20,349 nucleotides of DNA from an uncultured bacterium (GCA_964503595.1 CAZDAM010000063.1:1-20349); one strand, 5' to 3'; positions 1,222 to 19,870 are shown, numbered from the stretch's first letter. Notes: generated from the letters alone by a model not told the origin. Numbers and translations: made by a program.

Positions 1222-1593
1222 ATGCGAAAAAAACTGATTCGTTTTGACTGGGCGATCAAGAAAATCTTTCGTGAAGTCTCCGCTCTTTACCCTGAATACC
1301 GGCTGATCAATGTGGCCCGTTTCAATGAAATCGCCCGGGTTCCGCTCGATGAACGGATTCATTTCTTAAAAACGGAAGAGATCAAGCCTGATTCTCAGGC
1401 TCCGGGTCTTCTGGATGTGGCCGAAGCCCTAAGCGTTTTAAAGCTCTCCGATAAGGACAGCCGTGCCTCCACTTTGGCCCTTCAGGATGGGATTCTATCT
1501 GAGGAACAGTTCAGGCATAAAATAAGGGAGAATCTAGGTCGGGGTTTTGATGATCTGGTGTATTCCTATCTTGAACCTTTGGAGGAAAAATGA
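1222..1593 (+). CDS. Hypothetical 123-aa protein with a C-terminal SHOCT-like motif (LALQDGILSEEQFRHKIRENL). It is the first gene of a coupled four-gene operon.
   Basis: ATG at 1222 follows AGGTGA. Its stop TGA (1591-1593) overlaps the ATG (1590) of the next gene. The L-x-x-G-x-L-S-x-E-E-F-x-x-K pattern resembles the SHOCT short C-terminal domain. Confidence 0.5.
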   Translation: MRKKLIRFDWAIKKIFREVSALYPEYRLINVARFNEIARVPLDERIHFLKTEEIKPDSQAPGLLDVAEALSVLKLSDKDSRASTLALQDGILSEEQFRHKIRENLGRGFDDLVYSYLEPLEEK

Positions 1594-2057
1594 TTGTTCT
1601 GGAAGAAGAACCGCTTCGGATTTTTCTACTCTGCGCCTTTATGGTTGCTGGTCTCAGCTCCAAGCTGATTCTGAATTCCCTGCTTCAGGCGATCAATCGA
1701 TACTGGTCTTTTCGTCGCCGTAAAGAGGGTTGGGAACCGCCGGAGCCGGAATCTGTCCACAAGGGATTTGCTCCACTTGGTTCGGAAATCATGCAGGAGC
1801 GCCTCAAAATGGTCTGGCGCAATGATCTGGAAAACTTTGTTCCGTTCTCAGGACTTTTTCTTTTCAGCGCTATGATGCTCTTGCCCCAGCATCTGCTTCA
1901 GGCCGTTCTGGCCATTTTTCTTGGAACACGCTTCTTGCATACACTGTCCCTTTTGGGGGGACTGCTTCCGCTAAGGGTTCTGTGCTATATCACCGGCCTG
2001 ATTCTTCAGATCCTGATGGTGCATTACATCCTTCTCGTGATTGCCTTTTTAAGCTGA
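1590..2057 (+). CDS. MAPEG-family (MGST/FLAP/LTC4S-like) integral membrane protein, 155 aa with about four TM helices.
   Basis: GGAGGA sits just upstream and the start overlaps the previous stop (ATGA). Hydrophobic helices flank the motif QERLKMVWRNDLENFVPF, which matches the MAPEG signature E-R-x-x-x-x-x-x-N-D-x-E-N-x-x-P-F (compare MGST1 ERVRRAHLNDLENIIPF). Confidence 0.6.
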   Translation: MIVLEEEPLRIFLLCAFMVAGLSSKLILNSLLQAINRYWSFRRRKEGWEPPEPESVHKGFAPLGSEIMQERLKMVWRNDLENFVPFSGLFLFSAMMLLPQHLLQAVLAIFLGTRFLHTLSLLGGLLPLRVLCYITGLILQILMVHYILLVIAFLS

Positions 2058-2059
2058 AG

Positions 2060-2494
2060 ATGAAATATAAATCTCCTCCTTTGAGAAAGAAGAATCCCGG
2101 TATGAAGATTGATGATTCGATTTCTCAACAGGATCGCCAGAGTCTTTGTGACAAGGTTCAGTATGTGGGAAACCCGGTGCATAAACGGAATCCGGGTGAT
2201 TTTGGCCTTATTCCTCCCAGTGCAGCGAAATATCCTAAGACACTTTGTGATCCTACGGGTATTTTTCGCAAGGAAGATGCGTTGAAGGTCATGCAGGATG
2301 GAATTCGCCACGGGCTTGTAAGTCAGAGTTATGAGGGGGAGTTTCCCCGCCTTGTCTGGGGTATTCATCATCATGGCGAGAGCTGTTTTGTGCTTGAGTT
2401 TCGTTTGGATTCAGTTCAGGGAACTTATCATGGATATCCTTTGCAGAAGATGGATGCTCGTTATCAGGAAGTTTTGAAGAAATGGAAAAACTGA
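2060..2494 (+). CDS. Hypothetical 144-aa Cys/His-containing protein (SLCD..TLCD..GIHHHGESC) with no recognisable family. The start is uncertain; ATG 2102 is an alternative.
   Basis: The ORF-track version (1982) overlaps the MAPEG gene by 76 nt. An internal ATG at 2060 lies 2 nt after the MAPEG stop, and another at 2102 has a purine-rich upstream. The 3' end overlaps the next gene by 13 nt. Confidence 0.4.
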   Translation: MKYKSPPLRKKNPGMKIDDSISQQDRQSLCDKVQYVGNPVHKRNPGDFGLIPPSAAKYPKTLCDPTGIFRKEDALKVMQDGIRHGLVSQSYEGEFPRLVWGIHHHGESCFVLEFRLDSVQGTYHGYPLQKMDARYQEVLKKWKN

Positions 2495-3759
2495 GTTTTT
2501 TGATTGACTGGCTGAATCCAGACCCGGCTGAAAAAAAATTGCTTTTGTCTTCGACAATGGCAGATTTTGGCTTGCGAGGGATGGGAAAAGATTTTTTTTC
2601 ACATCTGAATAGCCTGGATGGTGGCAAGAGAGTTCAGTCGAGGTTACAGACTTCTCTATATCTGGTAGGTGACTGGTTGTCCGAACATTTCTGGCGTATG
2701 GCATATGAACCTGCCAAAGGATATGATTTAGCTGAATCTTCTTATGATTGGTTAAGGGCTCATTGCATGGTTTCAATTGGCAGGGGGTATTGTTGGCCTC
2801 ATCTGTTTTTTTATGGAGATGGAGATTCAGTAACTGCTGAGCTAAAAAATTTTCCAAAAGAATCTGTGATTCCTCTTCACTTTATAGAGGAGGGAAGTGT
2901 CCAGATTTCTCATCAGGAGTTTTTTACTTTGGTGTTGGAGTTTCTGGGAAAAATTCAGGAGAGATTGAAAAGTCAGAAGCTTTCAGATGAAGGTTTTTCT
3001 TTGGATCTGAAAAGCCTTATAGAAGAATGGAAAGATATAGATTTTCATCAGTATCGTCGTTTGGAAGCCTGTATGGGATTGGGGATTGATGAAAATCCTG
3101 ATTTTGTAGGAAGCGTTTTATCCCTTTTTGATGAATCTTCCAGGCTGGAAGATGTCTGTGAAATTGTGAGTGATGTCAATTTGGATAGTTCTGGGTTAGC
3201 ACAACTTCAGGATACTTTTCAGATTTTGCGAGATAAAGCAAATTGTGATGTTTCGGTCCTGAAAAACTGGGATACATCTGGTGCAAAACCTTCGATTCAT
3301 ACTGCTTATCAGTGGGCCAGGATTCTAAGGGAAAAACTGGACATTGATTCAGGGGCGGTTTCTGAAAAGCATTTTTCCGATCTTTTACAACTCCAGGTTG
3401 GCAAGGGCTTGGAGAAATTACCAGAAAATGCATGCTTTGGTATGGGGGAATTTCAGCCGGATGGCAAGGGATCCCTTGTTCTGACAAAAAAGCACCCAAG
3501 CAGTAAGCGTTTTCAGTTAGCGCGGCTCATTGGAGATTTTGTGATGTCTCATCAGGATTCCAGTCTGCACATAGCGGGAGAAACCTATTCCATGCGTCAA
3601 AAGATGCAAAGAGCCTTTGCCGCAGAGTTTTTGTGCCCGGCAGCTGAGCTTGAATCTTCCTATGATCCCCGCAACCGGGAGGATTTTATTTCTTCCAAAG
3701 CGATAGAGTATTCCGTATCAGAACTCGTGATTCAGCATCAGGTAGACAATTCATTTTAG
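2482..3759 (+). CDS. Hypothetical 425-aa protein with a C-terminal ImmA/IrrE (DUF955)-like module in which the HEXXH and downstream Glu zinc-ligand positions are all substituted, so it is a predicted pseudo-metallopeptidase.
   Basis: ATG at 2482 has AGGAAG upstream and overlaps the upstream gene's end. The C-terminal KRFQLARLIGDFVMSH ... QRAFAAEFLCP aligns to the ImmA/IrrE pattern rFTLAHELGHlllH ... E-ANaFAAELLMP, with H>R, E>L, H>D and E>Q/R at the ligand positions. Confidence 0.65.
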   Translation: MEKLSFLIDWLNPDPAEKKLLLSSTMADFGLRGMGKDFFSHLNSLDGGKRVQSRLQTSLYLVGDWLSEHFWRMAYEPAKGYDLAESSYDWLRAHCMVSIGRGYCWPHLFFYGDGDSVTAELKNFPKESVIPLHFIEEGSVQISHQEFFTLVLEFLGKIQERLKSQKLSDEGFSLDLKSLIEEWKDIDFHQYRRLEACMGLGIDENPDFVGSVLSLFDESSRLEDVCEIVSDVNLDSSGLAQLQDTFQILRDKANCDVSVLKNWDTSGAKPSIHTAYQWARILREKLDIDSGAVSEKHFSDLLQLQVGKGLEKLPENACFGMGEFQPDGKGSLVLTKKHPSSKRFQLARLIGDFVMSHQDSSLHIAGETYSMRQKMQRAFAAEFLCPAAELESSYDPRNREDFISSKAIEYSVSELVIQHQVDNSF

Positions 3760-4955
3760 GGAGCCTGAATGATCATGTTTTCCACAACGAAGTTGGTGAC
3801 AACAGGTTGCTGAAACTGGGAGAAATTCAGCTGGGGTAAATCAAAAGTGGCCTTCAGGGAAACTCCCTTGAAGAAGTCTGCAGTTCCACCTGCTTTTGTA
3901 ATATAGGGCTGAATGGCGAAGTCCAGCCTCTGGGGCGAGTTGGAGCTAGCTCCATCCGTGGCATCACCATACCCTCCACTGGAATTCGGTGCATTGGTAA
4001 TAGATGCACTGTTTCCGGCAATCGTCCGGTAGCCGGCTGAGATGGAGGCGTTCAAAGGGATATAGGCTCCCATATTGCCCGCGGTTTCCGTTCTGATTTC
4101 AAAAGAAGGAGTATTGGCATAGGCATAATGCTCATTCGGGTTGGCTTGATTTCTCAGATCAAAACTGAAATTTCCGTTATAGCTCTGCAATTGGGAGAGC
4201 TGGGAGAGCTGAATCTTCAAAGCATCCGGCCAGTCGGCAAGATTAAAATCGGTCACAGGACTGATATAGGCAGTGGATCCCACAATTTTGGAAATGTAGC
4301 CGGGCTTGTCGCCAATTGCAATCTGGGGACGGTTCAGGCGGGAGGCACCACTTCTTGAAATGATGTCAAAGGTATTGGAAGGTCCCATGGCAATCCAGTA
4401 GGCCCGGTTTGGAGTCAGCTCCACCAGAGGGGAAACAGAAGTCAGGGAATTATAGAACTGGGTGGAAAGCTGATTTGGAGAATGGATGAAACCAAGCCAG
4501 CGGTTGCCTTCCACGGTCATAATGGCGTGAATATGACCAAGAGATGCGTGCTGGGCCACAAATGCCGAAGTGCTGATGGTGGTCTGGGTCAAAGCCCGAA
4601 GCTGCCAGCCATACCTGTATTCCAGGGCAGGGAAAGCTTCTGTACTACAGCCTGAATCCATGGCATAAGTCCATTCCTGATTCGCGGAGACATAGTAGCC
4701 GTCATAGGCCTTGAGGGATTGGATTGCGTTGTATGAAGTAGCGGTAGGAGTGCTGTTTCCGGAATAGTGCGTAAAAATGCGCGAAGTTCGGGATATATGC
4801 CAGGCCGAGGTGATTTTGGAGGCTCCGGCACCAAAGGCTGCTGTTGCGGTTCGCGTACAGGGCAGACTTACCAGGGTGGTTCCCGTGGGAAGGGCTGCTG
4901 TCTGGGTGATCCCGGAAAACAGCAGGCCGATAAGAGTGATGATGAAGCGATGCAT
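3756..4955 (-). CDS. Secreted Ser/Thr/Asn/Gly/Tyr-rich protein (399 aa), probably beta-rich, of unknown function.
   Basis: ATG at 4955 has AGAGGAA 5 nt upstream. The N-terminus MHRFIITLIGLLFSGITQTAALP is a signal peptide. Its stop overlaps the stop of the convergent 2482-3759 gene by 4 nt. Confidence 0.65.
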   Translation of the reverse strand: MHRFIITLIGLLFSGITQTAALPTGTTLVSLPCTRTATAAFGAGASKITSAWHISRTSRIFTHYSGNSTPTATSYNAIQSLKAYDGYYVSANQEWTYAMDSGCSTEAFPALEYRYGWQLRALTQTTISTSAFVAQHASLGHIHAIMTVEGNRWLGFIHSPNQLSTQFYNSLTSVSPLVELTPNRAYWIAMGPSNTFDIISRSGASRLNRPQIAIGDKPGYISKIVGSTAYISPVTDFNLADWPDALKIQLSQLSQLQSYNGNFSFDLRNQANPNEHYAYANTPSFEIRTETAGNMGAYIPLNASISAGYRTIAGNSASITNAPNSSGGYGDATDGASSNSPQRLDFAIQPYITKAGGTADFFKGVSLKATFDLPQLNFSQFQQPVVTNFVVENMIIQAP

Positions 4956-5075: not shown

Positions 5076-6983
5076 TTGGCTAAGCTGCGCGAAATGGAAA
5101 TCACCCTGGAGCCTGATTGGGTCGGGGATATTTTTGCCCTGCTGCCAGCAGATTTTTCCTGGGACAGGCTGCATTTTCTTCATTTTCAGAAAAGTGGTCT
5201 TTCGGAGTGGCTGGCCCAGCGCGAGGAAATTCTCTACGCCTTTGAGCGATCCTACCCACGTCTCCACGAAATCGTTTTTGATCCCCGCTATCAATCGGGT
5301 GCTCTTTGTCGGTACCAGGTGTCAGGGCATCCATTGGCAGATTCCAGAGTCATGGAGGAGAGCAATTATCAGCCTCCGGGAATGCTTGGATTCACCAATC
5401 AGACTCACTGGTCCGTGCTTCCTCCTTTATTGAAAAAGGGAGATGTATTTGAGTCGGGGGTGCTTCTGAATACTCACTCGATGAGGTCTTTTCCTCCTGC
5501 CTTCTACCGTAATTTTCAGATGAATTCTCCTTATGGGCTCTGGGTTGCGGTTTTGATTTCCAAGGAGATTGTAGAAGAGTTTCGGATTCATCCCTGGAAT
5601 CTGAGCTTTCTCATCGAAGGAGCAGAGATTGAGGAGGGGCAAGTATGGGTTTTTGAAATTCCGGGAGCCTCATTCATGAACGAGGAAAATCCTGAATTAT
5701 TGGGTCTTGATGATGATGAGTCAAGGCCACGGGTTCAGGTGAGCCGCATTTTGAACTGGCAGACCTGCCAGGAGTGGATGCGTCGGGAAGTCTGTTGGGA
5801 GAAGGAGCCCTGGAAGGAAGAGCTCGGGATTCCTGATGAGCTTCAGTCCGATTTGTTGGAGGAGGAGTCCCTGGAAGCCCAGGCGAGTCTTCTAACCCGC
5901 TATGTGGCAGAAGGGATTCGAAGCTTTGCAACGGGGCTGTCCTTTGAAGCCTGGCCAAATGAAGTGCTCAGGCGGGGTTATGGGAATCCTCTGGAAAAGG
6001 CTGTTTTGCTGAAGGCTTTGCTGGTTCAGCATCAGATTCCCTGCACTCTCATGATGGCTTCGGTCAATGCCAGTTCCATGGTGCCTTCCGAGTTGCCTCA
6101 TCTGGACTTTCCAAGGCCTCTGGTGAGCGTGGAGCTGACTCCGGGGCAGCGAAAAATTCTGGATCCTTCGATTCCGATCTGGGCTGGGCTTCGCAGTGAA
6201 CGGCACTGGGCAGGAGCGGAGATTCTACCTCTGGAGTCCAGTACGGTTCTGAAGCCGTTTCGGCTTTGGGTCTCTCCTTCGGAAGGCTCCAGTCTGAAAT
6301 GGGAGATTCAGTGGAAGGCCAGCGCCAGGGATGATGAGCTGGATTGGGTTCAGATTCGTGAAACTCTGGGAGGGGTAGAAGCGCGTCGTATTTTTGAACG
6401 CTGGGGTAAATGGGATTTGAAGGAGCTTGGCAACCATCGCCAGCAGGAACTCGATTTCTGTTTTATCCGGGGTTCGGAATTCAAACTCAAGCGCATCACT
6501 TTGGAGCGGGACGGGGAGTTTGCGATTCTTCAGATTGAAGGGGAGCTTCACCGGGGATTTCAGATTCTTTCCAACGGAAACCGGGTCCGGGGTTTCTGGT
6601 TTGCTCCGATTCGAGGGTATTTTCATACTCTCTATGGCAATGGAACCCGTACCAGAGGAATTCGCTGTGAGCCACTTGCCATGGAAATGGAGCTTGAATT
6701 TCAGCATTCCCAGATGGTTGAGATTCCGGTGGATCCGTTTCAGTGGTCGTATGAGGGTATGGATTTGACCTGGTCTCAGAAGTTTGAGGCCCCACAAAAA
6801 AAATCCCGGGCTGTGATGAATCTGGAAGTCAATCGCTTCAATCTTTCTCATGAGGCCTATTCTTCTCAGATGGAGCGGTTCAAGAACTGGGCGGATTCGG
6901 GTCTGCCGTTTTTCTGGGAATCCCGGCCCCCGATGCTGCGTCGGGTGATTGATTCCTGGAAGAATCTGTTCGGGATGAATTAA
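5076..6983 (+). CDS. Large cytoplasmic protein (about 635 aa) with a transglutaminase-like (papain-fold) core flanked by N- and C-terminal domains. The catalytic Cys position is occupied by Pro, so it is predicted to be non-catalytic.
   Basis: TTG at 5076 has GAGGGTGG 8 nt upstream; ATG 5094 is the alternative start. RRGYGNPLEKAVLLKALLVQHQIPCTLM matches the transglutaminase-like/DUF3858-type pattern G-x-G-x-C-x-D-x-A-x-L-L-x-A-L-L-R-A-x-G-I-P-A-R with C>P. There is no signal peptide. Confidence 0.55.
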   Translation: MAKLREMEITLEPDWVGDIFALLPADFSWDRLHFLHFQKSGLSEWLAQREEILYAFERSYPRLHEIVFDPRYQSGALCRYQVSGHPLADSRVMEESNYQPPGMLGFTNQTHWSVLPPLLKKGDVFESGVLLNTHSMRSFPPAFYRNFQMNSPYGLWVAVLISKEIVEEFRIHPWNLSFLIEGAEIEEGQVWVFEIPGASFMNEENPELLGLDDDESRPRVQVSRILNWQTCQEWMRREVCWEKEPWKEELGIPDELQSDLLEEESLEAQASLLTRYVAEGIRSFATGLSFEAWPNEVLRRGYGNPLEKAVLLKALLVQHQIPCTLMMASVNASSMVPSELPHLDFPRPLVSVELTPGQRKILDPSIPIWAGLRSERHWAGAEILPLESSTVLKPFRLWVSPSEGSSLKWEIQWKASARDDELDWVQIRETLGGVEARRIFERWGKWDLKELGNHRQQELDFCFIRGSEFKLKRITLERDGEFAILQIEGELHRGFQILSNGNRVRGFWFAPIRGYFHTLYGNGTRTRGIRCEPLAMEMELEFQHSQMVEIPVDPFQWSYEGMDLTWSQKFEAPQKKSRAVMNLEVNRFNLSHEAYSSQMERFKNWADSGLPFFWESRPPMLRRVIDSWKNLFGMN

Positions 6984-14549: not shown

Positions 14550-15833
14550 TCAGACAAACTTCTTCACATCGGAAAAGGGGGGTCCCGGTTTTGCGAACAG
14601 GTAGCCCTGGCAGTAGTCCACTCCAAGCTCCTGTAGCTTGCGGTACTCGGAAACCGTCTCGATTCCCTCGGCAATCGACTTGGCATTGATGGACTTGGCA
14701 ATATTTAAAAGCGCGGTAATCATGGTCTGCTTCAATGGATCGGTATCTACATTGCGGATCATGGAAATGTCGATCTTGATGTAGTGAGGCTTGATTTTGA
14801 GAATGGTCTCAAAGCTTGAATAGCCGGTTCCTGTATCATCCAGAGCAATCTGGTAGCCCTCGGATGTATAGCGGCCAATATCCTCGATAAAGGATTCGTA
14901 ATTCTGAATAGCCAGGCTTTCGGTAATCTCAAAAACCAGGTTTTCCGGATTCAGGTTGTACTTGGCCAGTATTTCCTTCAGATAGACTTCCCTGAAATAG
15001 GTTTCATGGATGGTTGTGGGAAGAGCATTGATGAAAAGTTTTAGCTTGGGATTCATGGCCACGGCATTGTCCACGGCTTTCTTGCGGCAGACATTGTCAA
15101 GCTCGAAAAGAAGTTCGGATTCCTTGGCAATCTCGAAAAGAAAGAGCGGATTGAAGAATTCTGTGCCTTCCGGGCCACGACTCAGAGCTTCATAGCTGAA
15201 GATTTCTCCGGAATGGGAATCGACCATGGGCTGATAAACGGTGCGGATATCCTCATCCAGAATAATCTGCTGAAGGGTTTCCTTATAGCGGATTTCCGTG
15301 TGGTAGACATGGAAGGTCGACATCAGACGGGCTTCTTCAATCGCCCGGTAAATCATACGCTGGGGATTGAGCAGGGAGTTTTTGACAATGAAGCTGTAGC
15401 CAATGCGCAACTTGGGCTTACGTTTGAGCCATTTGTAGGTAGTAAAGAAGATGCCGCTTGAGATGTGGGCATGGATCCGACGGGCAATGGTTTCCAGATC
15501 GTTTTTTCGGGAGCCGCCGATATTGCGCTTCTTGGAAAGAATGATCAGGAAAGCATCATCAAATCCATGGCATTTCAAAATCAGGTCCGATTTTCTAAGA
15601 TATTTTCCCTGAAGACCGAGAATGGTACGGGTGACATCGCGTTGAATCGAGTCATAGACTGCAGCACCGTAGTCGTTTTCGATTTTGACCAGGTTGTAAA
15701 CATCCAGGTAAATGACGGCAAGGGAACGCTGAGCATCAAAAAAATTCAGTGCTTTCTTCATCGAGTGGGGGCCGAGGATGGGAAGTCCGGTGACTTCGTC
15801 CAGTAGTTCGGTCTGTACTTCGTTATCTTGCAT
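14550..15833 (-). CDS. c-di-GMP phosphodiesterase with a degenerate GGDEF domain (HGFDDAF in place of GG[DE]EF) followed by an intact-looking EAL domain.
   Basis: ATG at 15833 follows AGGAA; the TTG at 15896 is rejected. The GGDEF-type start is DEVTGLPILG. EAL motifs are YQPMV, YEALSR, DDTGTGYSS, IKIDISMI, IAEGIET and QGYLFAKP. Confidence 0.85.
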   Translation of the reverse strand: MQDNEVQTELLDEVTGLPILGPHSMKKALNFFDAQRSLAVIYLDVYNLVKIENDYGAAVYDSIQRDVTRTILGLQGKYLRKSDLILKCHGFDDAFLIILSKKRNIGGSRKNDLETIARRIHAHISSGIFFTTYKWLKRKPKLRIGYSFIVKNSLLNPQRMIYRAIEEARLMSTFHVYHTEIRYKETLQQIILDEDIRTVYQPMVDSHSGEIFSYEALSRGPEGTEFFNPLFLFEIAKESELLFELDNVCRKKAVDNAVAMNPKLKLFINALPTTIHETYFREVYLKEILAKYNLNPENLVFEITESLAIQNYESFIEDIGRYTSEGYQIALDDTGTGYSSFETILKIKPHYIKIDISMIRNVDTDPLKQTMITALLNIAKSINAKSIAEGIETVSEYRKLQELGVDYCQGYLFAKPGPPFSDVKKFV

Positions 15834-15968
15834 CGGGAGGTCATTCCTTTCCAGGTGATAGCTTTCACGGTAGCGGATCGTGCCCGGATTGAGCAACCAT
15901 TGACAGCCACGGGATGCTTGGAATTTGGCAAATTGATGGGATATAAGTCAGGTTTGGTCTATAGAATC

Positions 15969-16001
15969 AAAAAAAGCCCGCTCCAGTAGATTGGAGCGGG
16001 C
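15969..16001 (-). terminator. Rho-independent terminator of the SOD gene (minus strand).
   Basis: On the minus strand GCCCGCTCC-aatctact-GGAGCGGGC (9-bp stem) is followed by TTTTTTT, 43 nt after the SOD stop. Confidence 0.6.
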
Positions 16002-16043
16002 TCCTAGGAAACCTGTCCTAATTCAACCCGTTTGCAGGTTGTT

Positions 16044-16655
16044 TTATCCGCGAGCTGGGATACGGCCTTCGGAAACGGTGTCGAAGCGCTCGGAAGCCTT
16101 GGCCAGATCGACATTGGCGAAGAACTGGTCAATATAGGCTCCGCGGCCACCCGCTCCGAAATCTACCATGTAGGCATGTTCCCACACGTCCATGACCAGA
16201 ACAGGCTGGAAATGGGCTACGTTGCCCTCCTCATGCAGCTGGATGAAGTGATTGGCAAGGGCTTTGGTTTCCGGATCGACATAAAGCACTGCCCAGCCAA
16301 TGGAGCGGGATTTTCCGGTATTGGCGAAATCGGCTTTCCAGGCGTCGACACTACCCCAGCGGGCTTCGATAGCGGACTTGAGGTTGCCATCCAGGCTGCT
16401 TCCACCGGACTTAAGATTTCCGAAATACCACTCATGCAAAACCATGCCGTTGTATTCGAAACCATAGCGGCGGCGCCGATCCGTGTAGGCGGGGGAGCCT
16501 TCCTTACCCTCTTTTCTGAGGGCATCAAGCTCCGCCTCCAGGGCGTTGACCTGGGTTACATAACCTTTGTAGAGGTTCCAGTGCTGATCGATCTGATCGG
16601 CGCTGATGCCATTGAGGTTTGCTGGTTTCAGGTGTTCTTTTACTTCATATGTCAT
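16044..16655 (-). CDS. Superoxide dismutase, Fe/Mn family.
   Basis: ATG at 16655 follows GGAAAGGA; the track's 16784 start would overlap hisC and is rejected. The signature DVWEHAYY-like block DVWEHAYMVDF is present with upstream His-containing helices. The product is 203 aa. Confidence 0.9.
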   Translation of the reverse strand: MTYEVKEHLKPANLNGISADQIDQHWNLYKGYVTQVNALEAELDALRKEGKEGSPAYTDRRRRYGFEYNGMVLHEWYFGNLKSGGSSLDGNLKSAIEARWGSVDAWKADFANTGKSRSIGWAVLYVDPETKALANHFIQLHEEGNVAHFQPVLVMDVWEHAYMVDFGAGGRGAYIDQFFANVDLAKASERFDTVSEGRIPARG

Positions 16656-16770
16656 GTTGATGTCCTTTCCTGTCCGGGTCTTGTCCGGCTTTGCATGTCC
16701 CCGGCAAAACCTTTTCCATTCCGTGCAGTCTGGAATAGTGCCAAAAACATAACGGATGGATGCAAATGGA

Positions 16771-17883
16771 TCAAGGCCCTGCAATTCTGGTGCGATTTCG
16801 TGTGAGGGCGGTCAGTTCATTCAAAAAGGTGGCGTTTTCCTCGGGAGTACCGATGGTGACCCGCACGGCTCCGTTGGGTTCCAGGGGAATGGGGCGTACC
16901 GCAACACCTTTGTGCAAAAGACCGCTGTAGATTTCCTGGGCCTGAAGACCCCCTGTGAAGAGCAGAAAATTGGCCAGGGAAGGATAAACCTTCATACCCA
17001 GCTTTTCCAGAGCAGGTTTGAGTTCATCACGACCCTGAAGGGCCGTGCTTCGCACATGCTCCAGCCATTTTCCATCTTCAAGGGCGGCTAAAGCTCCGAC
17101 CTGAGCTACATGGTTGATGTGAAAGGGCAGCCGGACCCGGTTGAGGATATCCTGAAGCTCGGGTCTTTGAATGGAATAGCCAATGCGGACTCCGCTCAGG
17201 CCATAGGCTTTGCTGAAAGTCCTTGTGATGATCAGATTTGGATATTCCTTCAGAAAGGAAAGGCTGTCAGGATAGTCACAAAGATCATAAGCGTACTCAA
17301 AATAGGCTTCATCCAGAACCACCAGAGGTTCGTGTCTGAGAGCTTTGAAAAAATCCTGGAGCTCCTGGCGGGTAAACCAGGTTCCGGTTGGATTGTTGGG
17401 GTTACAGAGCCAGACCACCCGGGTGTTTTCATGGACTGCCTGAGCCATTGCCGGAAGATCGTGCTTGAGTTCCACCATGGGAACTATGGTTTCTTCAATC
17501 TGGCCAAGCCCCGCCAGGATTCCATAGATTGGAAAGGTCATGCTGGCTCTTACGGCGTGGCTTCCCTTCGGAAGGAAGGCCTTCACGATATGGGTCAGGA
17601 TTTCTTCGGTTCCGTTTCCCAGATGAATCCAGCTGGTTTCGACACCAAGCTTTGCAGCCAGAGTTTCCCTGAGCTTCAGGGAATTGGGGTCCGGATACCA
17701 GTGGATTTCCTGAAGGGATTCCTGCATGGCCAAAAGGGCTTTTGGGGAAGGTCCCAGAGTGTTTTCATTCGAGGCCAGCTTGGCCACTTTTTTCAGTCCG
17801 TATTCCCGGCGGATTTCTTCCAGGGGTTTGCCGGGCTGGTAGGGTTTGACATTGAGAATATGCCTGGGGATCAGTTCTGCCAT
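16771..17883 (-). CDS. hisC: Histidinol-phosphate aminotransferase.
   Basis: ATG follows GAGGAGA. The blocks KLASNENTLGPSP, NPNNPTG and the PLP-lysine block TFSKAYGLSGVRIGY are present. The product is 370 aa. Confidence 0.9.
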   Translation of the reverse strand: MAELIPRHILNVKPYQPGKPLEEIRREYGLKKVAKLASNENTLGPSPKALLAMQESLQEIHWYPDPNSLKLRETLAAKLGVETSWIHLGNGTEEILTHIVKAFLPKGSHAVRASMTFPIYGILAGLGQIEETIVPMVELKHDLPAMAQAVHENTRVVWLCNPNNPTGTWFTRQELQDFFKALRHEPLVVLDEAYFEYAYDLCDYPDSLSFLKEYPNLIITRTFSKAYGLSGVRIGYSIQRPELQDILNRVRLPFHINHVAQVGALAALEDGKWLEHVRSTALQGRDELKPALEKLGMKVYPSLANFLLFTGGLQAQEIYSGLLHKGVAVRPIPLEPNGAVRVTIGTPEENATFLNELTALTRNRTRIAGP

Positions 17884-17916
17884 CCTGTCTCCTCATGTTT
17901 TGGAGCGCATTGTAGG

Positions 17917-18927
17917 CTATTGGTGTTTGGGGCTCAAGTCCGCGTCCTCAAGGGCGGTTTGAAAGACAGTCTGAAACCTTTTGAAATCCTCAATAAACGG
18001 CATGTGACCCAGTCCTGAAATTTCATAGAGGCGGGAGCCGGGAATCCTGATTCTGGAAATCTTGCCCAGACGGTCATAGCGGCCCAGTTCATAGGAATCG
18101 GCATCCTTCTGAAAGCCCCGTCCGGGGCCGGTGCGATCTCTTGTACCCAGAATCAGGCTGGTGGGGACTCTGAGCTTTTTGAAGTCTTCCACCACGGGCT
18201 GGGAGAAGATCATGTCGTAGGTCAGGGCGTTGTTCCAGGCAATCCGTTCATGATCCGGACCATTGAGCCAGCCGATATGGGTCTGAATGAGGCTTTCGTA
18301 GGCCTCGGACCACTGCCCGTCGTAGTAGTTCTTCTTTTGGTAGACCCGAATACCCTCGGCAGTTTTGGCAAGTTCGGACTGATAGAAAAACTCCACATCC
18401 TTATAGTGGGCGTGATCCAGGTAATTTTCCAGACCAATCGGATTGATCAGAAAGAGATGACGGGTAGATTCCGGATACATCAGGGCAAAGCGGGTTGCCA
18501 GCATCCCGCCCATGGAATGGCCGATAACGATGACCTCGGAAATATTCAGGGACTCCATGAGTTTGTGGGTATTTCTGGCCAGCTGAGGAAATCCAAACTG
18601 GTAATAGGCTGGCTTGGATGATTTTCCAAACCCGATCTGATCGGGAATCAGGACACCAAAACCCATCTTGTGGAGTACTTCAATGACCGGTTTGAAATAG
18701 TATCCGGAGAAATTCTTGCCATGAAGAAGCAGGAAGGTGGGCTGAGCATTTCTGGCCTTGAGATGCATGTAAGCCATTTCAAGAGACTGATTCTGGCTTC
18801 GAAAGGCAAAGGACTCGACCGGGTAGGGGTAGGCATATCGGGTGAGTCGGGCATCATAGACAGGAGCTTCTGACCAAAGAACAGATGCAAAGATGAGGGC
18901 AAGCAGGCTGAAAAAGGGTTTTTGCAT
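17917..18927 (-). CDS. Secreted alpha/beta-fold hydrolase with a GHSMGG nucleophile elbow.
   Basis: ATG at 18927 follows GAGGAGAA; the TTG at 18990 is rejected. The signal peptide is MQKPFFSLLALIFASVLWSEA. The motifs LLHGKNFSG (HG oxyanion) and VIGHSMGG are present. Confidence 0.8.
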   Translation of the reverse strand: MQKPFFSLLALIFASVLWSEAPVYDARLTRYAYPYPVESFAFRSQNQSLEMAYMHLKARNAQPTFLLLHGKNFSGYYFKPVIEVLHKMGFGVLIPDQIGFGKSSKPAYYQFGFPQLARNTHKLMESLNISEVIVIGHSMGGMLATRFALMYPESTRHLFLINPIGLENYLDHAHYKDVEFFYQSELAKTAEGIRVYQKKNYYDGQWSEAYESLIQTHIGWLNGPDHERIAWNNALTYDMIFSQPVVEDFKKLRVPTSLILGTRDRTGPGRGFQKDADSYELGRYDRLGKISRIRIPGSRLYEISGLGHMPFIEDFKRFQTVFQTALEDADLSPKHQ

Positions 18928-18942
18928 GATTCTCCTCAGGTA

Positions 18943-18957
18943 GGGAGGGGACTGTAA
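18943..18957. promoter_or_regulatory. Palindrome TGTAACataGTTACA in the 5' leader/promoter of the hydrolase gene. It overlaps a candidate -10; a possible -35 TTGAAC lies 17 nt upstream on the minus strand.
   Basis: A perfect 6-bp inverted repeat with a 3-bp spacer lies 16 nt upstream of the hydrolase ATG. The minus-strand reading TTGAAC-N17-TGTAAC is a candidate sigma-70 promoter. Confidence 0.25.
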
Positions 18958-18990
18958 CATAGTTACAATTCTTTGGTTCGTCCGGTTCAA

Positions 18991-19017
18991 TTCCGGGCCA
19001 GTGCCAAAGGCCCGGAA
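18991..19017 (-). terminator. Strong GC hairpin downstream of pirin (TTCCGGGCC-N9-GGCCCGGAA, 9-bp stem). It may be a terminator with a poor U-tract or an attenuating structure.
   Basis: This is a perfect inverted repeat. On the minus strand it is followed by TTGAACC, which lacks a proper U-run. It lies between the pirin stop (19041) and the hydrolase start (18927). Confidence 0.3.
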
Positions 19018-19040
19018 TCTGGATGGTTCTTTTTGATCCT

Positions 19041-19736
19041 TCAGGAAGCCATATCAAAGAGCAGAATCTCGGCATTCCTGCCATTCTGGATGCTCAGGGT
19101 TTCACCGGCCTTGAGAATCAGGGCATCGCCAGCCTTCAGAAGCTTCTGGTTGGCCTGCACGCTTCCCCTGGCAACATGAAGCCAGCCAATCCGGTCTGCT
19201 GCCAGTTGATGGGAAATCTGATGCTCAGGCTGAAGAATTGCCGTATGAAGATCCACATTCTGTCTGATGTGAACAGCTCCATCTGTCTTCCGGGATGAGG
19301 CGATCAGGCAGAGTTTTCCTGTTCTTTCCTCCGTTGGAACATGAAGCTGTTCGTAGCCAGGCTGAATTTCCAGGGTATCGGGCTGAATCCAGATCTGAAG
19401 CAGATGCACGTTATTTTGGGAGGAAGGGTTGAACTCGCTGTGATGAACTCCTGTTCCGGCACTCATTTTCTGAATATCTCCGGGGCGGATGATGGAGCCG
19501 TTTCCCATACTGTCCTTATGTTCCAGTTCTCCCTCAAGAATCCAGGTCAGGATTTCCATATCGCGGTGGGAATGGGTATCAAAGCCCATCTTGGGGGCGA
19601 CAATGTCATCGTTGATGACTCTCAGCGGGCCGTATCCCATAAAATTCGGGTCATAATAGTGGGCAAAGCTGAAGGTATGGGCACTTTTCAGCCAGCCCAG
19701 ATTGCTTTGTCCTCTCTCCGATGCTTTTCGAATCAT
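19041..19736 (-). CDS. Pirin-family (cupin) protein.
   Basis: ATG at 19736 follows AAGGAG; the upstream ATG at 19832 lacks an SD and overlaps the repeat region. Pirin blocks are GWLKSAHTFSFAHYYDP, GFDTHSHRDMEI and MSAGTGVHHSEFN. Confidence 0.85.
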   Translation of the reverse strand: MIRKASERGQSNLGWLKSAHTFSFAHYYDPNFMGYGPLRVINDDIVAPKMGFDTHSHRDMEILTWILEGELEHKDSMGNGSIIRPGDIQKMSAGTGVHHSEFNPSSQNNVHLLQIWIQPDTLEIQPGYEQLHVPTEERTGKLCLIASSRKTDGAVHIRQNVDLHTAILQPEHQISHQLAADRIGWLHVARGSVQANQKLLKAGDALILKAGETLSIQNGRNAEILLFDMAS

Positions 19737-19820
19737 GTTGCACTCCTTTGTGGTAAGGACTCCACCGCAATTCCTGTGCCAAGTCTGGATGATCTGATAT
19801 TTCCAGGCTTTGTAGCAAAG

Positions 19821-19870
19821 TTTATGTTGCATGAAGTGTTGCGCGAATCAGCTTTATGGTGTTGCATGAA
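19821..19870. repeat. Direct repeats TTTATG(g)TGTTGCATGAA x2, with a third TGTTGC, in the divergent promoter region between pirin and the sigma-54-type activator. They are candidate regulator-binding sites.
   Basis: TGTTGCATGAA occurs at 19825-19835 and 19860-19870. TGTTGC also occurs at 19838-19843. This was seen directly. Confidence 0.4.

Follow-up and report, generated by a model that had tools for sequence, protein, structure and literature searches.

Within a 20,349-nucleotide stretch of DNA from an uncultured bacterium (GCA_964503595.1 CAZDAM010000063.1:1-20349; the whole of this stretch is referred to here as the window), four open reading frames (ORFs), genes 1 to 4, follow one another on the same strand between positions 1222 and 3759. 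We found that the functional unit consists of the last two, gene 3 and gene 4, and that genes 1 and 2 are mere local neighbours. The pair (2060-3759) is probably a Rosmer-like, type II-style toxin–antitoxin (TA)-like module with gene 3 as its effector, a protein whose toxicity we infer.

Conservation and mobility of the gene 3 and gene 4 pair

Scanning one genome per species with the gene-4 family alignment gave at least 323 loci, of which 80 were returned. Synteny was then read from a set of 83 related loci encoding gene-4 relatives, chosen via gene 4 and spread over more than 12 phyla. The gene-4 homologue is immediately preceded by a gene-3 homologue in 74 of the 83 loci using tblastn and in 76 using a hidden Markov model (HMM) of the gene-3 family. 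Three of the seven loci without gene 3 under the HMM are contig ends, leaving 76 of 80 testable loci, and one of the other misses (L065) retains a frameshifted remnant of the gene-3 C-terminus. When loci were instead picked via gene 3, a gene-4 family member came next in all five (E 1e-82 to 1e-133), with a spacing of -8 to +2. In three distant genomes a small gene 44-45% identical to gene 3 precedes the gene-4 relative and overlaps it, and neither a MAPEG gene nor a gene-1-like gene is found beside it. Tblastn detected homologues of gene 1, gene 2 (the MAPEG gene), the acidic protein upstream of them and the two genes downstream in none of the 83 loci, and genes 1 and 2 also had no homologues in the five loci picked via gene 3. 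The 106 immediate neighbours of the pair match 127 Pfam families, none of which recurs in more than two loci, suggesting that there is no third partner. An adjacent, co-oriented pair that is inherited together independently of its neighbours is a feature of RosmerTA and of type II TA systems in general, and genes 3 and 4 behave in this way.

A previous reading of the window made from the sequence alone (the sequence-only reading) had described all four genes as one translationally coupled functional unit, and had named a lack of synteny in related genomes as a result that would refute it. That is what we observed for genes 1 and 2, the first of which has no detected homologues at all, and the four-gene unit is rejected. 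The accompanying suggestion, an accessory or defence-like module whose function is undescribed, still applies to gene 3 and gene 4 as a pair, but not to the four genes. The layout itself was as described: the four ORFs, their shared direction, the ATGA stop/start overlap of genes 1 and 2 at 1590-1593, the 2-nt gap between the TGA of gene 2 (2055-2057) and the ATG at 2060, and the 13-nt overlap between genes 3 and 4, where the gene-4 ATG at 2482 lies inside gene 3 and the gene-3 TGA is at 2492-2494, can all be read from the sequence. Compact bacterial operons often contain overlapping junctions; tight junctions alone are therefore not evidence for a functional unit, and tight stop/start junctions did not mark it here. 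Of these junctions, the overlap of genes 3 and 4 is the only one that characterises the family, with most of 71 pairs overlapping and -4, -8 and -16 being the commonest values, although these were measured from the leftmost possible gene-4 start and are therefore overstated. Co-direction is not specific to the four genes either, since the run continues for at least six more genes upstream in the source contig (UbiD, a methyltransferase and others).

Conservation of N12, which is kept in at least 90% of family members, backs a gene-3 start at 2060. The public gene call (P0121, 130 aa) begins at 2102 and loses conserved N-terminal residues, N12 among them, and the ATG at 2060 agrees better with the family. 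There is neither space for a separate promoter nor a consensus promoter between genes 2 and 3, and as the cassette begins 2 nt past the gene-2 stop, its promoter would be either inside gene 2 or absent. A promoter and terminator scan gave fewer matches than, or no more than, shuffled sequence. Since a separate promoter has no room between genes 2 and 3, it is possible that all four genes are co-transcribed; this would reflect an accident of insertion and give no evidence of shared function.

The pair looks like a horizontally acquired, mobile cassette. It is found in Myxococcota, Alpha-, Beta- and Gammaproteobacteria, Cyanobacteria, Verrucomicrobiota, Acidobacteria, Dehalococcoidia, Spirochaetota, Desulfobacterota, a Firmicute and others, with homologues sharing 23-30% identity for gene 4 and about 25-48% for gene 3. 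GC content at third codon positions (GC3) is 0.414 in gene 3 and 0.378 in gene 4, compared with 0.56-0.64 in eight Pfam-assigned genes downstream (7045-19832). Four copies are on plasmids, each with both genes. The copy on the Massilia sp. H6 plasmid NZ_CP103373 (L088, 27758-29514) is flanked by dptG/dptH genes (phosphorothioation-dependent restriction) and by genes for a patatin-like phospholipase and a PD-(D/E)XK nuclease, a setting that is defence-island-like; its gene-3 homologue is apparently annotated too short, at 243 nt compared with a 423-nt tblastn match. Other copies adjoin an IS21 element and a group II intron, or PIN/Phd and HepT/MNT pairs. Two different metagenome assemblies (L091 and L093) share an identical site for the pair, with DUF1501 and SGL/NHL-repeat genes upstream of it, and the pair seems to be vertically retained in that lineage. 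No match for the pair was found in PHROGs, complete E. coli genomes gave no match to the copy of Pluralibacter gergoviae ATCC 33028 (L077, with gene 3 at about 5560-6000), and the sequence around 2060-3759 has no flanking repeats or insertion scars beyond short chance-level repeats. A metagenome scan with the nearby S41 peptidase, run as an empty-site comparison, returned just two relatives, at 54% identity and with a different local gene order.

The proteins encoded by gene 3 and gene 4

The gene-3 family, whose members are about 140-150 aa long, comprises 853 representatives at 50% clustering, nearly all of them stand-alone proteins of 130-180 aa. No Pfam, NCBIfam or PHROG model describes the family, and none of its members carries a Pfam domain. 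Across 48 diverse members, 23 positions are invariant (Y35, G37, H41, K42, N44-G46, F48, L50, P52, C63, D64, G81, S88, P96, W100, E113, G121 and Y123-P127), mostly polar or aromatic residues, and since such a pattern is typical of an enzyme, gene 3 looks like one. The two strongest motifs are listed in the table below; with fragments included, HK[RK]NPG is present in 165 and YHG[YF]P in 224 of 269 family sequences. The sequence-only reading had described gene 3 as a Cys/His-rich protein with an Rx5H motif (PRLVWGIH). Neither description found support: conservation among its cysteines and histidines is limited to C63, H41 and H124, with neither the HHH run at 103-105 nor H103 being conserved, and a zinc-binding role has no support either.

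The AlphaFold model of gene 3 (predicted local distance difference test, pLDDT, 82.7) combines two helices and a C-terminal helix with a three-stranded antiparallel sheet on which E113 and YHGYP lie. Its fold matches are mostly CdiA-CT toxins, which we take to share the Barnase/EndoU/colicin/RelE (BECR) fold, and a Foldseek comparison of the model with the Protein Data Bank (PDB) gave nothing significant. A weak match links residues 112-143 to the C-terminus of Menshen NsnC (PADLOC E 0.0065; 5 of the 48 members, best 0.0012), where the PB-BECR1 RNase domain of that system lies (PMC12065111). Aligning the gene-3 profile to YafQ and YoeB sequences with hhalign gave a probability near 1% and no relationship. 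A BECR-type endoribonuclease is the leading hypothesis for gene 3, and if the protein is a toxin we consider the chances that this is correct to be roughly even.

More than 200 gene-4 relatives of about 430-450 aa, at 23-30% identity, occur in many phyla. The AlphaFold2 model of gene 4 (pLDDT 85.8, predicted template modelling score 0.86) has three parts, the coordinates of which are given in the table. Structural matches, which secondary structure leads us to place on the N-terminal domain, are the CdiI/Imm23/NMB0503 immunity proteins, and the central region gave no informative structural match. The C-terminal domain is modelled with high confidence as keeping the Peptidase_M78 fold. In sequence, gene 4 scores 13.8 bits (E 0.052) with Pfam PF06114, below the gathering score of 22 bits, and 9 of 22 gene-4 family members match at E of 1 or less, the best at 9.4e-6. 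Profile searches of PDB sequences, made for gene 3, for gene 4 and for its C-terminal domain, returned chance-level matches only.

HEXXH is the family signature of COG2856 (PMC2701414), and the active-site residues of IrrE are His82, Glu83, His86 and Glu113 (PMC12828697). None of 120 gene-4 relatives, and none of five further relatives, has HExxH in its last 170 residues. R-[LFI]-[IL]-G-D is the commonest string at the former HEXXH position, and the residue correspondence between ARLIGD and AHExxH was made by eye. The most conserved stretch of the protein, residues 372-386, has invariant R372, Q373, Q376, R377, A378, F379, A380, E382, F383, L384 and P386, and presumably occupies the site of the canonical M78 E-x-x-A-N-x-F-A..LL.P with the third zinc ligand. 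As all of the metal ligands are replaced, the domain would be unable to act as a zinc protease. The catalytically dead ImmA/IrrE-like module that the sequence-only reading saw at the end of gene 4 is thus borne out by the retained fold together with the absent HEXXH. NCBI names many gene-4 relatives 'ImmA/IrrE family metallo-endopeptidase', and with the metal-binding motif missing from all 120, this product name probably overstates their activity.

Table 1. Positions of the four genes and of the domains and motifs of genes 3 and 4 in the window (aa, amino acids).
Feature	Position	Strand	Description
Gene 1 (g1)	1222-1593	+	123-aa ORF; neighbour outside the conserved module
Gene 2 (g2)	1590-2057	+	155-aa MAPEG membrane protein; neighbour outside the conserved module
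Gene 3 (g3)	2060-2494	+	144 aa; proposed toxin/effector of the conserved pair
HKRNPGDF motif, gene-3 residues 41-48	2180-2203	+	H41, K42, N44, P45, G46 and F48 invariant; R43 and D47 at least 90% conserved
Gene-3 residues 113-127	2396-2440	+	E113 on strand 2, G-T-Y-H-G-Y-P (121-127) on strand 3; candidate acid/base catalytic residues
Gene 4 (g4)	2482-3759	+	425 aa; proposed antitoxin/sensor; 13-nt overlap with gene 3
Gene-4 N-terminal domain, about residues 1-165	2482-2976	+	Modelled as two beta-beta-beta-beta-alpha repeats; Whirly/PUR-like fold common to CdiI/Imm23 immunity proteins
Gene-4 central all-helical region, about residues 166-317	2977-3432	+	YRRLEAxLGFDPDE motif conserved; links the two end domains
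Gene-4 C-terminal domain, about residues 318-425	3433-3756	+	ImmA/IrrE (Peptidase_M78, COG2856) fold without the catalytic motif
A-R-L-I-G-D, gene-4 residues 347-352	3520-3537	+	Occupies the position of A-H-E-x-x-H in ImmA/IrrE proteins; family consensus RRFELARLIGD
R-Q-K-M-Q-R-A-F-A-A-E-F-L-C-P, gene-4 residues 372-386	3595-3639	+	Most conserved stretch of gene 4

A proposed toxin–antitoxin mechanism and its alternatives

The assignment of roles within the pair follows from several observations. Gene 3 looks like the enzyme because it is more conserved than gene 4 (44-45% compared with 25-27% identity in the same three genomes), has 23 invariant positions and weakly matches the BECR domain of NsnC. 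Gene 4 looks like the antitoxin because it has no intact catalytic site, because RmrA, the ImmA-domain antitoxin of RosmerTA (PMC10440598), is its closest defence model, and because an association of COG2856 proteins with RelE and PIN toxins is already documented (Makarova, Wolf and Koonin 2009, PMC2701414). Matched by 12 of 22 members (best E 1.2e-7), RmrA is the best defence model for the gene-4 family, with capP next at 3 of 22; the window protein itself matches the PADLOC RmrA model at E 5.8e-4 and 16.8 bits, over the M78 core only (profile positions 182-262 of 363).

In the mechanism we propose, a mobile two-gene cassette would have landed at the end of a co-directional run of host genes, right behind an unrelated MAPEG gene. 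The gene-3 product would be a toxin of the cytoplasm, about 145 aa long and built on an alpha/beta core of the RelE/colicin-D-like (BECR) type. It would most likely cleave tRNA or mRNA as an endoribonuclease that needs no metal, using the invariant E113 and H124, with H41, K42 and R43 placed on a flexible loop. Gene 4 would be the antitoxin, made by translational coupling with gene 3, and its CdiI-like N-terminal domain, as the most likely neutralising part, would bind and mask the toxin. The C-terminal ImmA/IrrE domain would no longer be a zinc protease, and its predicted arginine-rich pocket could serve as a sensor of a ligand or trigger, or have a regulatory function. CapP and PprI, the nearest structural relatives of the gene-4 M78 domain, are switched on by single-stranded DNA (PMC13228613, PMC10904395), and this makes a nucleic-acid cue for gene 4 an attractive guess. 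If gene 4 were lost, displaced or triggered, the toxin would be set free and growth would stop, resulting in addiction and/or abortive infection. In this scheme the pairing, the overlap, the patchy distribution and other signs of mobility, the base composition, the folds of gene 4 and the loss of HEXXH were observed, and the toxicity, the RNase chemistry, the neutralising interface and the trigger are inferred.

Decayed copies of gene 3 were seen next to intact gene 4. Copies split across frames, truncated or degenerate occur at L024 1332-1766, L026 2525-2981, L084 5386-5872, L047 5650-5850 and L065 954-1418, and three loci (L037, L066 and L082) have gene 4 without detectable gene 3. In the last of these a 328-aa ORF lies upstream of gene 4, and from its N-terminal sequence we take it to resemble a YhgA/Rpn-type transposase. 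Decay of gene 3 beside intact gene 4 fits toxin loss; the count, about 9 decayed copies of gene 3 and 2 of gene 4, is biased since the loci were selected via gene 4, and was not used as evidence.

Several observations weigh against the TA interpretation. No helix-turn-helix (HTH) or other DNA-binding domain that could provide autoregulation was found in gene 3 or gene 4, nor an HTH in 22 gene-4 members, which is atypical for a type II TA system. The HKRNPGDF loop, the best conserved loop of gene 3, is the least confident part of its model (pLDDT 56-60). The pair shows no enrichment in defence islands, with PtuA-like defence ATPases being only 2 of the 106 immediate neighbours, and it is absent from 50,697 phage records searched with gene 3, the gene-4 C-terminal domain and a relative (P0030). 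Additionally, the fold modelled for the gene-4 N-terminal domain is also that of the single-stranded nucleic acid binders Whirly, PUR and MRP1/2, and its partner may be nucleic acid and not the toxin.

In one alternative the pair is not toxic at all. Here gene 4, with its Whirly-like domain and an M78 domain that formerly sensed single-stranded DNA, would sense single-stranded nucleic acid or DNA damage and control gene 3, a small enzyme that would process or repair RNA, or modify a target, without killing the cell; we consider this sensing or regulatory role unlikely, although it is the strongest of the alternatives to a TA module. The pair could also be a novel abortive-infection or stress switch, in which a pseudoenzyme of the ImmA/IrrE/CapP lineage, with an arginine-rich pocket in place of the zinc site and together with a Whirly-like domain, senses a nucleic-acid or phage cue and releases a bound BECR-type RNase of a new family with no repressor cleavage. 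We give this reading a low probability, though if true it would provide a direct, non-proteolytic and non-transcriptional output for a lineage that senses single-stranded DNA.

It is improbable that the pair is an orphan effector/immunity cassette of a secreted, interbacterial polymorphic toxin system, with gene 3 as a detached toxin tip and gene 4 as its immunity protein. The fold matches of both proteins do point in that direction, mostly to CdiA-CT for gene 3 and to CdiI/Imm23/NMB0503 for the gene-4 N-terminal domain, but the best 150 of the 853 gene-3 family representatives are all 297 aa or shorter and none is fused to CdiA, Rhs or another large delivery protein. Genes for contact-dependent inhibition (CDI) or for type VI or type VII secretion systems do not recur among the 106 neighbours, and the toxin-first order with an overlapping, larger M78 partner is typical of TA or Rosmer systems and not of polyimmunity loci.

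Very improbable as well is a gene 4 that is still a protease through a non-canonical active site, processing gene 3 or a host or phage protein, with proteolytic activation like that of ImmA/ImmR, IrrE/DdrO and CapP/CapH. The fold is kept with high confidence in the model, conservation within the protein is highest in the region of the former active site, and D352 and E382 are conserved acidic residues. However, in all 120 relatives Arg, Leu/Phe/Ile and Asp stand where HEXXH has His, Glu and His, a Gln occupies what we take to be the position of the third ligand, and the cassette encodes no XRE/HTH protein as a substrate. Least probable of all is a single co-evolved stress or defence operon of four genes acting together: the shared direction, the overlapping or abutting junctions and the lack of room or a consensus for a promoter between genes 2 and 3 make a single transcript plausible, but genes 1 and 2 accompany the pair at none of the 83 or five loci, gene 1 has no detected homologues, gene 2 resembles other window genes in GC3 (0.55) while genes 3 and 4 do not (0.41 and 0.38), and the co-directional run goes on for at least six genes upstream.

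Neighbouring genes and comparison with known systems

Gene 2 is a MAPEG protein, as the sequence-only reading had proposed: it matches Pfam PF01124 at E 1.1e-13 and 51.9 bits, above the cut-off of 23.4, over profile positions 22-128 of 129, and its ERLKMVWRNDLENFVPF matches the signature ERxxxxxxNDxENxxPF. With a full-domain match and the signature kept, nothing about it is unusual for the MAPEG family, and it is a plain upstream neighbour of the cassette; its GC3 of 0.551 is similar to that of the eight Pfam-assigned genes at 7045-19832. Gene 1 has no match at E of 1 or less in Pfam, NCBIfam or PHROG and no PADLOC family, and the SHOCT-like tail proposed for it found no support. Its sole match among 5.8 billion proteins is gene 1 itself, and its GC3 (0.484) is somewhat atypical. 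Upstream, 161-1159 encodes a strongly acidic 332-aa protein with PEPEPEPE and E/A/V-rich low-complexity repeats, for which no family match was found and whose GC3 (0.456) is below that of the eight downstream genes. On the opposite strand, 3756-4955 (-) encodes a 399-aa protein with a signal-peptide-like N-terminus, convergent with gene 4 and with its stop overlapping the gene-4 stop by 4 nt. No family was found for this protein; in two metagenome contigs (L089 4427-4987 and L090 1620-2126) relatives of it at 23-25% identity adjoin the S41 peptidase gene. Further downstream are a 635-aa ORF with a TTG start (5076-6983), without a Pfam, NCBIfam or PADLOC family, and a 476-aa protein (9010-10440) with weak matches to SPFH/Band 7 and to the major-vault-protein 'shoulder' (E 3e-5 and 7e-7).

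If the pair is a working TA system, a widespread family (at least 323 loci in species-representative genomes, about 850 gene-3 clusters and more than a dozen phyla) has gone unrecognised by domain and defence libraries, and PADLOC sees it only weakly and partially, through the NsnC C-terminus for gene 3 and the RmrA M78 core for gene 4. Gene 4 would also offer a clear natural case of a conserved pseudoenzyme derived from an ImmA/IrrE protease domain, and would bear on how the single-stranded DNA-sensing CapP/IrrE lineage can be rewired. Our literature search found no described family of inactive-ImmA antitoxins, though an earlier description elsewhere is possible.

Compared with toxins of the BECR fold (RelE/YafQ/YoeB, colicin D/E5, CdiA-CT tRNases and PB-BECR1 of NsnC), gene 3 has no significant sequence or Foldseek match, is larger than the RelE type and has a long conserved insert between helices at residues 33-70 (HKRNPGDF…LCD). 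We know of no insert like this in BECR-fold toxin families. The N-terminal domain of gene 4 shares no sequence similarity with CdiI/Imm23 or Whirly/PUR proteins (no such Pfam match in 22 gene-4 members), and while the CdiI/Imm23 immunity proteins stand alone and are small (5ffp_B has 155 aa), in gene 4 it is fused to two further domains. The CapP/CapH and IrrE(PprI)/DdrO systems rely on catalytically active zinc peptidases, which cut an HTH repressor once they bind single-stranded DNA, whereas gene 4 has neither the metal ligands nor a repressor beside it, its partner being a small enzyme-like protein. The COG2856(-Xre) modules are more similar, as they too are mobile, patchily distributed modules with a COG2856-fold protein beside a probable RNase toxin of the RelE superfamily. 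They differ in combining an HEXXH protease with an Xre HTH repressor, fused or adjacent, which the protease is predicted to cleave, and the gene 3 and gene 4 family has neither.

The nearest described system is RosmerTA (RmrT/RmrA), an anti-phage TA system that corresponds to NetFlax node D25, 'ImmA protease antitoxin' (PMC10440598), followed by the older COG2856-Xre-RelE/PIN association (PMC2701414). Both are two-gene cassettes in which a toxin of variable or unknown family is joined to a larger antitoxin with an ImmA/IrrE-fold domain, and the toxin-first order of our pair is common there, at 58% for D25 (PMC10440598). None of the RmrT models is matched by the gene-3 family. For RmrA the description is of an antitoxin with a protease domain and, in many cases, an HTH at the N-terminus (PMC10440598), whereas the gene-4 family differs in three defining ways: it has lost HEXXH, lacks an HTH and carries a CdiI/Whirly-like domain at its N-terminus.

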